Shown one piece after another: positions 36,001 to 39,000 of a DNA stretch of 51,256 bases (position 1 is its first letter; each line of letters begins with the position of its first letter). The stretch covers positions 1 to 51,256 of the forward strand of contig JBFLWF010000019.1 in NCBI GenBank assembly GCA_040758355.1, read 5' to 3'. The DNA is from Nitrospirota bacterium (lineage in GTDB: Bacteria; Nitrospirota; Thermodesulfovibrionia; Thermodesulfovibrionales; Dissulfurispiraceae). Position numbers: made by a program.

Positions 36001-39000
36001 TAATTGAACTCCCCATCCCCGTCCCCTCTTTTGCCAAAGGTGAAAAGTGGATCGCCTTTAGTGGAGTAAACATGAACCATATGTCCGTAACTGTCAATTA
36101 TATAAAGTCTTCCAATATCATTGTTTATGGCAATACCTCCCGGGTTTTTAAATTCATCCTTTTTCCCGAGGGCTATCTTTAGATTGCCGTTCGCATCATA
36201 ACCGAATACCCTCTTCTGTTTTGCATCCGACACAAAGATGATGCCGTCGGATGAAACAGCAACGCCTGCCGGAAGGGCAAGTTTGCCAAGGTCCTTATAC
36301 CCCATGAAGGTTACCTTCTGCTCCTTCAGGTCAAAGACAAAGACAACTGCGCTCTGGGTATCCGTAACATACATCTTGTCTCCATAAGCAGTAACGCCAT
36401 AAGGCTTTTGGAGGTCGGTGCTGAACATCGTCTCACCCAGAACAGCTTCAAAAAAACCTTTCTTTTTAAAATCGCTTTCGCCTTTATAGCTGTTCACATA
36501 TGCCAATTTCGGTTCCTCAGGAGGTGAGGGCCAGATAAGCTTGACTTCCTTAACTGCAGGCGGAGCGCAGGAAAGACAGGCTAAGGTTAAGGAAAAGGAA
36601 AAGATGAAAAAAATTTTAGAAAGAAAGTGTATTTTCAGTTTTTTCTCTACCTCTGCCTTTACCTTTACCTGTTTCTGTTTACTCATGCCTATCATCCTCC
36701 TCTACCTTTTCCTTTACCTTTTCCTGTCTCTCAAAGTATTCCCTTAATGCATCACGTATTATATCAGACATGGCAGCCCTTTTACCCTGTCTTTTGCTTA
36801 TATCAGCAACCATTTCGAGCAGATGCATCTTTATGTCTTTATCCAGATATATTGTTGTCTTTTCCATATATTAAAGATAGGTTATAGGTCATAGGTTATA
36901 GGTTATAGGCAAGAACGAGCTTTTATGAGTTTGCCTAACATTTTGCCTACCATTTCGCACTCTTCAGAGATATACTCGAATTCTTCATCTGAAAGATACC
37001 CTATTTCCTTTGAAATTATAATCTGAGTTAAAAGTTCTGCAAGAGACCCTTTGGATATATAGAGGAATCTTACAGAATCTTTATTTGTATCTCTTTCATC
37101 GCCCTCTGCAATATTGCTTGCTATGGAAATTGCAGCACGACGAATCTGATCTCTCAGTCCAAAATCTTTAGAAAAAGCTCCAGAATTCGTTACTTTACAG
37201 ACATATACTGCTAAATCTTTAGCCCTTTGCCATACCTTAAGTTCTCTAAACCCTTTTTCGCCCATTACCTATTACCCATTACCTATTGCCTAATCTTACC
37301 ATATATATGTCAAACTCAGAACTCCAAAAAAAAAGGGGAGAATGTCTCCCCTTTTTATCAAGATTTGCCCCTTATTTCCCGTGACAGCCAAGGCAGAGTG
37401 CGCTTCCGGAGTTGGATACCCTCAAGAACAGGCCGTTTGTGCTTGTGTGCGGGTCATGGCAGCTTGAGCACTCAACCTTATTGCTTCTGAGCAGATTAGC
37501 TATTGTTGTAGCACCCTCCCATCCTGTAAGTGCTGTTGATGTCGCCTTAAGGCTTGCCTTGCCGGCAGTGTAAGCGATAGACACTGGATGGTCGTCAGCT
37601 AAAGTTGTTCCAAGGTTTGCTGCTCCAGCAGGCATCGTCTTTGCCGTTCCAGCTAATGTTGCACCAAATGCCACATTGTAACCGCCAGCAGTCACTCCTC
37701 CAGCGCCGGCCTGGTTAACGATTGAGTTGAGTGCGCTTACGCCGTCATGGCAGGAAAGACATGCCTTTGTAATGCCGTTTGGTGTTGCATCTGGAGTTGA
37801 ACCTGCTATAGTTGTTCCATACATGGTATAAGTGGCTGATGGAGTTGCCTTGTTCCAGAGCGGTGCTCCTGTAAAGCCTGTGTTTGCAAAGTGCGGGGTA
37901 TGGCAGTATACGCAGATTTCATCATTCTGCTGTCCTGCATTTGCCTTTACTGTGCCAGGACCTGATGTTGACAGGTTATGCTTTGTGGCTGAAATGCCTG
38001 CCAGTGCAACACCTGCGCCCAAAAGTGCGATTGCTGCTACCATTACTACTAAGATTTTTCCTTTCATCTTACTCACCTCCCGTTTTTTGGTTTTAAAGGT
38101 TATTGCCTTGCCTTTCATTATCTTCACCCCCAATAACTGATTTCTAACTTCTTGCCAATTATAAAAGCAAACCTTATGCCAGATTGAATCTCTTTGAAAA
38201 ATAAAGATTTTAGACTTCAGTCTAAATATGGGAGGTTTTTGTTGCGCAATATCACGCAGTTAGTGAGGGAAATGGCGAAGGTATTGGAATATGGCTATCC
38301 GTCTGTTTAATTGGTCTGCTATATAGATTGTGTCTTTTTCGTCTATAAAGATCCCTGATGGAAGCCATAATTTTCCGGGTCCTATGCCCATAGAGCTGAA
38401 AAAGAGCAGCAGGGTGCCTTCCCTGTCGAATATCTGGACATTATTAAAGGCAGCATCCACAATATATGTATTTCCGTCAGAGTCCACTGCTACACCTTTC
38501 GGCCTTGCAAGTCTTCCGGGGGTATCGCCTATTGCTCCTATCTGCTTGATGAATTTGCCATCGGCATCGAATATCTGCACCCTGAAGTTCAGGGTATCGC
38601 TGACATAAACCAATCCATGCCTGTCAACATAAATACTGTTGGGATAATTAAATTCACCCTCGTTACTCCCCCTTTTGCCGAATTCAAAAAGCATATCGCC
38701 ATTTTTATTCATTGCAGTGACATTGTGCTTGTGTGTATCAACTACATATATCCTTCCGAGGGATTCATTGATAGCTATCCCGGTTGGCTGCTTAAATTGC
38801 CCTTTCTTATTAAGGGTATATCTGTAATCGCCGTTATGGTTATAGACTATTACCCTGTCCTGCGATGAGTCGGTCACGTATATATTGCCCTCTCCATCAA
38901 CAGCCACACCGATTGGCTTATTAAGACCGCCGATACCCGCCTTTTTACCTATATAGTGCGCCTTTTTGTTAACCGTATCGTATATTGCTATCTTCGAGCC

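Follow-up and report, generated by a model that had tools for sequence, protein, structure and literature searches.

An IVP gene between inverted heptamer arms

The window analysed here (51,256 nt of contig JBFLWF010000019.1) belongs to a Nitrospirota genome, G000, that is 99% complete in 93 contigs. At positions 36870-37291, on the reverse strand, it carries a 422-bp cassette in which a small gene stands between two repeat arms. The gene (36903-37265, reverse strand) is an intact reading frame of 120 aa for an IVP/S23p four-helix-bundle protein, which scores 127 bits against PF05635 (cut-off 33.8) and 126 bits against TIGR02436 (cut-off 24) and stays below the cut-offs of the bAvd and Avd models (35.8 < 80 and 25.5 < 40). 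The upstream arm (37261-37292, reverse strand), built of TAGGYAA and TGGGTAA units, has exactly five GG cores at a period of 7, the last core overlapping the ATG (core starts at 37261, 37268, 37275, 37282 and 37289), and its G-rich strand points inward, toward the element. Inverted relative to it, the downstream arm (36877-36911, forward strand; unit TAGGTTA) also has exactly five GG cores at this period, starting at 36879, 36886, 36893, 36900 and 36907, and contains the stop codon. Terminal inverted repeats thus surround the reading frame, as the definition of rRNA intervening sequences requires; the flanks are protein genes and not the 16S or 23S rRNA genes in which that definition places them.

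The 3' end of the cassette adjoins a small host ORF (36691-36867, reverse strand) that is kept in G001-G003; it appears ribbon-helix-helix-like by eye only and has no Pfam match. The nested arms of an empty hairpin with a 6-bp unit (36571-36732) are translated as the N-terminus, or signal region, of an NHL-repeat gene (35574-36695). The cytochrome c gene upstream has a host hairpin resembling a terminator (37330-37356, reverse strand), which lies outside the element and is conserved at filled and empty sites alike. Rfam models run against 35000-40500 gave nothing over the gathering score and chance matches only. With the limited sensitivity of a single-protein query, tblastn of the window protein found no match among 50,697 phage records and 13 among 72,556 plasmids, all of them cyanobacterial.

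A contig of run X4 fuses 36868 with 37296 and lacks 427 bases, and in one strain contig the downstream arm is one unit shorter (a 7-base gap at 36884). The congener used for site comparison, G002 (90% identical), holds a 70-bp hairpin of another unit at this place; across congeners the junction is either empty or occupied by hairpins of other units. Such comparisons bear out the survey's finding that IVP genes are arm-bracketed cassettes which come and go at gene junctions.

Arm units follow the protein clade

Inverted arms were found at all seven of the six PF05635 and one PF13366 matches of the genome. The survey had counted six of seven; its bracketing stands, and the gene at C2:52741, which it had taken for one-armed, has its second arm within its own reading frame. 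To score pairing, the upstream flank of each locus was aligned with its own reverse-complemented downstream flank (score at least 14), with cross pairs between loci as control. Among IVP loci of the order 25 of 28 own pairs passed, against 27 of 756 cross pairs; in a second set, from which one of 24 matches was left out for its short flank, the counts were 14 of 23 and 5 of 506, and among metagenome relatives of the window protein arms paired in 48 of 75. Elsewhere, arms thus accompany 73 of 103 and 14 of 23 IVP loci, the other 30 and 9 falling below the pairing score.

It had been proposed that every cassette has its own unit. This did not hold: arms pair across loci in 1210 of 5550 comparisons within the window clade, against 128 of 4200 between sets, and the three arm sub-motifs require 6 changes on the IVP protein tree, against 28.2 when shuffled (65 rows; a tree of few columns). 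The arm unit is specific to the protein clade, not to the locus. Among proteins 54-79% identical the GG columns stay paired (158/164 and 153/162), and position 4 is nearly free (78/148). In Xanthomonas and Luteimonas, GGGAATC-type arms were found at four of four single IVP genes, and the start of XCC0516 is overlapped by repeat 15 of Rehm's table, in the part of it that we used (PMC4692102). The published orphan GGGAATC repeats of Xanthomonas are the arms of XCC0516. No IVP gene lies within 600 bp of any of 80 long GGGAATC arrays.

GxxExxY (PF13366) genes were also thought to be bracketed in the same manner. They do have inverted arms (6 of 9 own pairs versus 7 of 72 cross pairs), but of 2-3 units of 9-10 bp, and the gene occurs in only 7 of 61 genomes of the order, being absent from the array-rich G001-G003; one search pattern recovered only two empty hairpins of this type in G000. 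GxxExxY cassettes are a separate build, differing in structure and distribution.

Empty hairpins and solo arrays

The abundance of gene-less hairpins of cassette build, also part of the survey's finding, was confirmed: 237 of 915 periodic runs have an inverted partner within 150 nt, as compared with 18 of 3833 random controls. The G-rich strands point inward in 200 of the 237. Of 237 empty arms, 156 match an IVP arm of the order with like polarity and 19 with opposite polarity, the reversed-arm control matching 92 of 237. The loops are unique, and none of 79 hairpins has a same-family paralogue at least 90% identical (median identity 74%). The constant columns of hairpin families are imposed by the search patterns and carry no evidential weight; at the free column, three families show an asymmetry between left and right arms (rho from -0.6 to -0.82), which is absent overall (rho 0.10).

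Several hairpins lie in the window. The one at 39809-39916 has two arms of the same GGTNATR unit class as the cassette. At the junction of an 8-bp-unit hairpin (19881-19981), a different unit, of 7 bp, forms a short run in G002; a 7-bp-unit hairpin (25517-25583) is absent from G002 (77 bp replace 21); and in place of a 6-bp-unit hairpin (26008-26118) there is in G002 a gene flanked by other inverted repeats, which are REP-like.

Most periodic runs lack an inverted partner and are thus solo arrays, which the survey had missed. There are 298 in G000, 219 of them inside reading frames, and because they exist the basic unit is a single five-unit arm, not a stem. At the site of one such 7-bp array in the window (17557-17584, in a reading frame) G002 carries an array built from another unit, and the two lengths differ by 3 nt. 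Solo arrays are not followed by an A-rich tail (59 vs 65).

Arrays stop at five units

Without any pairing filter, the downstream arms of all 75 clade loci had five cores in 37 cases, four in 10, three in 2 and six in 7; shuffled sequences attained five cores in 7 of 3000. The upstream arms spread more widely (five cores in 17, six in 13, seven in 8). In G000 the period-7 arrays number 130, 156, 158, 9, 3 and 1 for three, four, five, six, seven and nine cores, and the period-8 arrays 61, 41, 2 and 2 for four to seven. Arms of empty hairpins have their maximum at five units for each of the periods 6, 7 and 8, and the cap therefore counts units, not bases. Over 41 genomes, 1790 of 2144 arrays with at least five cores have exactly five (the four-core class being counted in G000 only), the share dropping to 55% in G014 and 65% in G005. 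Long runs are present in Xanthomonas, Moorena and others, so that the cap is not absolute. Arrays in G000 are of fixed length and may begin and end in any phase, and no master array of greater length was found there.

The five-unit limit matches the pentameric ring of IVP and Avd proteins. The predicted structure of the window IVP (pLDDT 96) has a TM score of 0.84-0.90 to 2GSC, an XCC0516-like four-helix fold, and of 0.76-0.78 to Avd; the fold thus resembles the pentamers 2GSC, 2RLD and Avd, with five chains in both 2GSC and 2RLD. A model of four, not five, window IVP copies scored 0.44 against 0.00 for the best control, a result probably driven by likeness to 2GSC; among solved pairs 20 of 30 reach the scoring mark, among single chains 1 of 23. 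At least 83% of the contacts agree between runs, with pLDDT at least 82. In the diversity-generating retroelement (DGR) complex, according to the part of the preprint consulted, one RNA stem-loop is touched by all five Avd protomers, with bases flipped into the crevices between protomers (bioRxiv 2023.10.23.563531).

Gain, loss and swapping between species

Comparison of G000 with 770 kb of G002 gave 71 junction differences bearing hairpins. In 55 of 56 one-sided events host bases are replaced without target duplication, although at 10% divergence a duplication of 2-4 bp may have decayed. Together with the lack of hairpin pairs 90% identical, this does not support the idea of a small mobile element that spreads as a copy-and-paste mini-transposon, and an IS or MITE of the DDE type was rejected on the same grounds.

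Of 60 testable solo arrays, 29 are absent or swapped in G002 and 31 are shared; all 47 coding cases are in frame. At 16 of the 60 sites the array in G002 is built from an unrelated unit, once in the opposite orientation, and several empty sites show no visible seed. The impression that young arrays are perfect was not borne out, the difference in perfection between lineage-specific and shared arrays not being significant (p=0.17). Swapped junctions have flanks 91-94% identical that contain no foreign patch; the lateral arrival of entire junctions from remote donors was rejected, since flank identity is not lowered.

Two cassettes occupy the last-spacer slot of CRISPR arrays. Spacer acquisition is a doubtful route, since each of the two disrupts a repeat and the slot doubles as a gene junction.

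Array density and IVP copy number

Across 41 genomes array density correlates with IVP count (rho 0.62; 0.57 with one genome per genus). One of 14 genomes without IVP is array-rich, versus 15 of the 20 that have at least two IVP genes, and 9-mer arrays occur in 16 of 27 IVP genomes versus none of 14 IVP-free ones; the two genomes whose IVPs carry 9-mer arms have 52 and 20 9-mer array matches. There are exceptions: G015 and G024 have IVP, yet few counted arrays, and array matches number 23-49 in G017 (66% complete), G037 and G038, where no IVP was found. For the largest 8-mer family of G000 there is no IVP in the genome itself, a matching one being in G025, and G004, with the most 9-mer arrays, has clear 9-mer arms at none of three IVP loci examined. 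Both the gene-array and the motif-clade correlations could stem from linkage and shared ancestry.

Discussion

These findings point to an undescribed way of repeat spread. The account that we favour, and hold to be moderately probable, is that the IVP ring selects and measures five-unit modules by putative binding and that inferred host repair enzymes install them. IVP genes and five-unit modules would then be one selfish system. An IVP homopentamer would bind a single strand of five 6-9-nt units, one purine-G-pyrimidine core per subunit, thereby choosing the unit type and limiting the module to some five units, or 30-38 nt. Host enzymes would install the module at chromosomal breaks or gaps, consistent with the observed replacement without target duplication. 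One module would yield a solo array, kept in genes only if in frame, as we observe; two modules with inward G-rich strands would yield the empty hairpins seen here, and two around an IVP frame an autonomous cassette, as at 36870-37291. Old arrays and junctions would be hit again, one unit type supplanting another as in the swapped sites, and IVP genes would traverse lineages and then vanish, leaving their arrays. The ORF-bearing 23S rRNA intervening sequence would be such a cassette, inserted by chance into a helix of the rRNA.

If true, this account would join the function of the IVP/S23p family, which has had pentamer structures since 2006 and no function, with the origin of the 7-8-bp repeats over-represented in bacteria and the movement of rRNA intervening sequences. 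It would also imply a source of protein loop variation, as most solo arrays lie in frames and about half of the testable ones differ in the sister species. The DGR helper Avd itself comes from the IVP family.

A more doubtful possibility is that the ring, with a putative host polymerase, writes about five cognate G-strand units onto free 3' ends at breaks, like a capped telomerase. One end would give a solo array and two head to head a hairpin, and new arms annealing to those of a cassette would copy the IVP gene. De novo writing fits the inward G-strand polarity, the lack of duplication, the unique loops and the fixed length with free phase; it poorly fits young arrays that are not clearly more perfect and solo arrays that show no A-tail asymmetry. 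If it were true, this would be a self-propagating element free of integrase and reverse transcriptase (RT), and it would account for the heptamer repeats of bacteria as well as for short loops inserted in frame into hundreds of proteins.

We consider it unlikely that the element acts at the RNA level, with arms forming a transcript stem cut by RNase III, the IVP serving as RNA-binding regulator or Avd-like RT helper, and spread proceeding via RNA. Such a reading can draw on the Coxiella burnetii S23p intervening sequence, whose stem has heptamer repeats and is cut by RNase III in the portion of PMC4990558 used here, on the partnership of Avd with an RT, on the five-count, which equally fits RNA wrapped on a ring, and on the window arms, which have one mismatch per 7 nt and form the stronger duplex on the sense strand (-41.5 vs -34.6 kcal/mol). 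Across loci, however, there is no sense-strand G.U excess (109 G.U vs 130 A.C; 22 vs 36 loci), the sense duplex is more stable in only 27 of 71, and hairpin polarity is independent of transcription (30 vs 21), so that G.U bias, duplex energy and strand bias all fail to indicate RNA-stem selection; solo arrays, moreover, need no stem. A PF00078 profile search of the 99% complete G000 found no RT, 10 of 19 array-rich genomes lack PF00078, and RT and array density correlate at rho 0.15. An RT was accordingly rejected as IVP partner for want of co-occurrence, and a DGR because its cognate RT is missing. In the 5' arm all four bases are hit by mismatches, at 17-28% each, and the adenine-specific variation of DGR-like mutagenesis was not seen.

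It is decidedly unlikely that a separate, transient nuclease or transposase (GxxExxY, HUH/RAYT-type or GIY-YIG) mobilises the arms with the IVP as hitchhiking cargo. GxxExxY genes own inverted arms, REP-like elements and a nuclease-like gene are found at or inside the same junctions, and the IVP has no known catalytic site. Yet the rarity of GxxExxY, its absence from the array-rich G001-G003 and its other arm build do not support its proposed role as mobilising enzyme. The end repeats of both Y1 genes of G000 are unrelated to the arrays, unlike in REP/REPIN-RAYT systems, and Y1 transposases were rejected as mobilisers. What lies inside the long-range arm pairs found in G000 is either an IVP gene or ordinary host genes and, by eye, no mobile-element enzyme. 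The 83 longer IVP forms are scattered read-through fusions, among which no recurrent mobilising domain was found (8000 candidates scored), and a cargo role would leave the clade-specific motifs and the five-cap unexplained.

Least probable of all is that slippage from local seeds at tolerant sites, filtered by selection, made simple-sequence repeats that are associated with IVP through linkage or lateral junction transfer: unit gains and losses do occur (the 7-base gap; 21-nt differences), tolerant sites are re-used, about half of the testable solo arrays are shared with G002 and lineage-specific ones are not significantly more perfect, but slippage would not lead one to expect the cliff after five units at three periods, unrelated or inverted units at the same sites, seedless empty sites, inward polarity, swapped junctions without a foreign patch in their flanks, or the lack of 9-mer arrays in IVP-free genomes.

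Comparison with known systems

MITEs, REP/REPIN sequences with RAYT, and Rickettsia palindromic elements are short noncoding inverted repeats with many copies and polymorphic sites; they occasionally insert in frame into genes, and the associated gene is flanked by the repeats. The elements described here differ in having no transposase, no target duplication and no near-identical copies, and in being built from a periodic single arm capped at five.

Orphan heptamer and octamer repeats include the cyanobacterial STRR sequences. Others are GGGAATC of Xanthomonas (PMC4692102), TAACTGA of Beggiatoaceae (PMC4679880) and the repeat classes of Geobacter metallireducens, with 4-5 tandem units in opposed pairs (PMC2700814). 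As here, they mostly comprise 4-5 units of 7-8 bp, often convergent at junctions and sometimes intragenic; the first 74 rows of the Xanthomonas table list four units in 41 (PMC4692102). G-quadruplexes, IHF/HU sites or translational control have been proposed for them, no linked gene being named in the text available to us, whereas the arrays are now tied to IVP genes, including XCC0516.

Avd (PDB 4DWL, 8UB7) has the same fold and forms a pentameric barrel in which five protomers bind nucleic acid, according to the sections of PMC6182149 and bioRxiv 2023.10.23.563531 drawn on here; unlike in its setting, there is no RT here and no TR or VR, for which no separate search was made, and no adenine-specific arm change was found. 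DRT10, in the part of PMC12632851 considered, provides a bacterial precedent for telomerase-like de novo synthesis of short tandem repeats; it is an antiviral system of RT and ncRNA, whereas no RT co-occurs here and the repeats are chromosomal.

In the literature outside subscription papers and bioRxiv supplements we found nothing that connects IVP genes with a rule of five units or, beyond rRNA, with periodic arms, and no paper uniting the gene-in-arms layout and in-frame arrays via the five-count. The class as a whole, which the survey had called undescribed, was thus not found in print, but earlier work gives separate descriptions of the empty hairpins and of the rRNA case with its heptamer arms, in the accessible parts of PMC2700814, PMC4692102 and PMC4990558.

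Among the closest known systems is this rRNA case. The available portion of PMC4990558 describes in Coxiella an IVP/S23p frame within terminal inverted repeats, tandem heptamers by the start codon, a unit number that differs among strains, and a sporadic, laterally gained distribution, all as here; S23p was not detected in vivo, and there the repeats are treated as a local feature, with no mechanism of mobility. Unlike the Coxiella sequence, the cassettes of the present genomes lie at protein-gene junctions and CRISPR array ends, amid hundreds of gene-less hairpins and solo arms and with no sign of RNA-stem selection. The ORF-bearing Coxiella rRNA intervening sequence is one case of the IVP cassette.

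Inverted arms at IVP and GxxExxY genes

The gene for a small four-helix-bundle protein (IVP, PF05635) lies at 36903-37265 on the minus strand and encodes 120 aa. Its upstream arm (37261-37292) has five GG cores at 7-bp spacing, the last overlapping the start codon, and the inverted downstream arm (36877-36911), again with five GG cores, holds the stop. A profile search of the whole genome (G000) gave six PF05635 matches and one PF13366 (GxxExxY) match, and the survey's finding that such genes are bracketed by inverted arms held for all 7 of 7, including the IVP gene at C2:52741 (L006, C2:52704-53141), whose second arm lies within its own reading frame. 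Read in frame, this downstream 9-mer arm is a Ser/Thr-rich linker, and the IVP-plus-suffix gene may descend from a cassette (arm-gene-arm) read through long ago; among longer IVP forms we found only scattered read-through fusions.

We collected 111 distinct IVP hits, 103 of them with full flanks. A locus's own flanks paired (score of at least 14) in 73/103 cases (25/28 from the order, 48/75 from metagenome relatives), against 27/756 cross pairs in the order set; in a second IVP set the figures were 14/23 and 5/506. Direct orientation scored at 22/103 loci, and some loci have direct arms or a complete hairpin (two inverted arms, no gene) on one side. The window protein had 13 plasmid matches, all cyanobacterial, and no match in phage records.

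A single arm is the unit of the repeat system

G000 contains 915 periodic runs (period 6-10), and for 237 of them an inverted partner lies no more than 150 nt away (18/3833 in controls); in 200 of these 237 the G-richer strand points inward. Unpaired runs are mostly solo arrays: 298 are strong 7/8-mer arrays, median 32 nt, and 219 of these lie within long stop-free frames. Sixty solo arrays had an orthologous site in the compared stretches of the congener G002, where 31 were shared, 16 faced an array of another unit and 13 no array, with the reading frame kept in 47/47 coding cases. Copies of one unit have no fixed phase at either end and no flanks in common, and they are shorter than about 40 nt. 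Lineage-specific arrays did not significantly exceed shared ones in perfection (p=0.17).

The T-rich arm of a hairpin often supplies, in translation, the N-terminus or signal peptide of the gene that follows (window 36571-36732, 35457-35573 and 39231-39411; loci L014, L019 and L027). Hairpin modules are unusually many in the multiheme cytochrome c, NHL-repeat and two-component gene cluster at 29589-43875. In the G000 hairpin families TCAGC, AGCTNAT and GGAGT, the letters that left and right arms favour at the free column are complementary, which puts a mismatch at regular spacing in every unit (rho -0.6 to -0.82), independently of transcription direction.

Modules are exchanged at gene junctions

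The survey's view that cassettes come and go at junctions is borne out at the window site: it lacks a repeat in the congener G001, holds a 70-bp hairpin of another heptamer in G002, and in G003 holds G002's hairpin, whose loop there contains a nested REP-like element. In public assemblies of sequencing runs (low depth, contigs only), an X4 contig jumps over 36869-37295, a further contig has the cassette minus one unit, and X2 and X5 contigs diverge at 36868 into other sequence; another run, X1, may be the source.

We compared 770 kb of G002 (~30% of that genome), of which 582 kb aligned to G000 at 90.4% identity. Hairpins were included in 71/241 gap events: 33 in G000 only, 23 in G002 only, and 15 in both, with the unit shared in only 5/15. 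Inserts replaced host bases, from 1 to more than 100, at 55 of the 56 one-sided events, and none of the 56 showed a target duplication, of which 10% divergence might mask a very short one; several "empty" sides carry remnants of other arrays. The flanks of swapped junctions are 91-94% identical, so these junctions are not foreign patches. Hairpin paralogues were at least 90% identical in 0/79 cases (median 74%).

In a CRISPR array type common to G000 and G002, the slot of the last spacer is taken by two different IVP cassettes, one with 8-mer arms (G000; L002, C24:130-655) and one with 7-mer arms (G002; L063, C21:1974-2528), and in both cases a repeat is damaged. The G002 array has 22 repeats; that of G000 is cut at the contig start by an IS-like end. 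Two near-identical G003 cassettes with the same internal TAA (L011 and L035, C1:1520320 and 1736797) each adjoin a CRISPR-like repeat, and in G001 (L062, C56:60150-64511) gene-carrying inserts of 2.3 kb and 0.95 kb split a CRISPR array. A second, REP-like inverted-repeat family (L068 in G003, L299 in G002, window ~39290-39370) is nested in arm loops, and in G002 it also lies on both sides of a small nuclease-like gene, at the junction that corresponds to window 26008-26118. Genomes of different families (L012, G004; L014, G032) carry nearly identical 8-mer-armed IVP cassettes, both with one and the same gene start behind them, a case of recent lateral transfer.

Candidate mobilizing enzymes

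Reverse transcriptase was found neither in G000 nor in 10/19 array-rich genomes. The ends of the two Y1 transposases of G000 are unrelated to the arms; the Y1/HUH genes on C21 (L159) and C10 (L160) have their own inverted ends, and the C21 match contains stops. GxxExxY had been put forward as no more than a candidate for the mobilizing enzyme. Its genes have arms in 6/9 cases, built of 2-3 longer units, and it is present in only 7/61 genomes; we therefore regard it as a parallel cassette type and not as the enzyme. Searches of the arms for a sense-strand G.U excess, a duplex advantage and a transcription bias found none.

Arms follow IVP clades

Arms of different loci cross-paired in 1210/5550 cases within the window clade and in 128/4200 between this clade and the order set. 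GG is almost invariant across arms of proteins 54-79% identical, and the fourth unit position is nearly free, even among units of one arm. Three sub-motifs required 6 changes on a 65-protein tree against 28.2 when shuffled, a clustering of labels that linkage alone also produces. Empty arms matched an order-IVP arm in the same polarity in 156/237 cases and in the opposite polarity in 19; reversed arms gave 92.

Five-core array density rose with IVP number (rho 0.62, or 0.57 with one genome per genus; kin are not independent), and array-rich genomes comprised 1/14 of the IVP-free and 15/20 of the multi-IVP genomes. As predicted, the two genomes with 9-mer-armed IVPs gave 9-mer pattern matches (52 in G032, 20 in G031); any such match occurred in 16/27 IVP genomes and 0/14 IVP-free genomes. 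Against this stand G004, with 58 9-mer matches and no clear 9-mer-armed IVP among three loci viewed; G000, which has no resident IVP for its largest 8-mer family; and three IVP-free genomes with 23-49 array matches.

Unit number is largely capped at five

Counting purine-G-pyrimidine cores, G000 has 130, 156, 158, 9 and 3 period-7 arrays with 3, 4, 5, 6 and 7 cores, and 61, 41 and 2 period-8 arrays with 4, 5 and 6. Hairpin arms peak at five (15/24, 55/102 and 43/105 for periods 6, 7 and 8), as do downstream arms at all 75 window-clade loci (37 loci with five cores, 10 with four and 7 with six); the spread is broader upstream. Across 41 genomes, 1790/2144 arrays with at least five cores, the four-core class being uncounted there, had exactly five; among the 19 array-rich genomes this share has a median of 87% and falls to 55% at the lowest. 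These counts include a few chance matches per genome.

The IVP fold resembles the pentamers XCC0516, BT_0352 and Avd. A four-copy model of the window IVP, with high agreement and high pLDDT, scored a little under one half, above the mark used, against nil for the best control, which may reflect likeness to 2GSC; that mark was reached by 20/30 solved pairs and 1/23 single chains. In a DGR structure, a single RNA stem-loop is gripped by all five Avd protomers, and bases are flipped into inter-protomer crevices (bioRxiv 2023.10.23.563531). We infer that the five units correspond to five subunits, and we lean slightly towards a model in which modules are bound and measured by the IVP ring and installed by host repair.

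Comparison with known systems

The repeat system is real, widespread and fast-turning, and by the defining tests of IS/MITE, REP/RAYT, DGR and rRNA IVS it is none of these. STRR, REPIN/RAYT and Rickettsia palindromic elements are further known repeat systems. We found no publication, among those openly accessible, that joins orphan repeat arrays, rRNA IVS and IVP genes.

By eye, three Xanthomonas genomes and one Luteimonas genome hold a single IVP gene between GGGAATC-type arms, at a site that reads as the accB-accC junction, and Moorena has repeat runs at 5/6 loci viewed, several with more than five units. Rehm 2015 (PMC4692102) describes GGGAATC repeats in Xanthomonas, 186 in all, which often form convergent pairs and show no link to mobile elements; repeat 15 of that set overlaps the XCC0516 start. 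Aklujkar 2009 (PMC2700814) and MacGregor 2015 (PMC4679880) describe arrays of 4-5 and 2-6 units without a linked gene. IVP genes are scattered in cas loci (Zhang 2014, PMC3936711) and occur in CPR rRNA inserts (Tsurumaki 2024), and the Avd homology comes from Belalov 2023 and Handa 2018. In the Coxiella 23S IVS, which RNase III excises, an S23p frame goes with a 28-bp stem and tandem heptamers (Warrier 2016, PMC4990558); the ORF-bearing IVS is one case of the repeat system described here.
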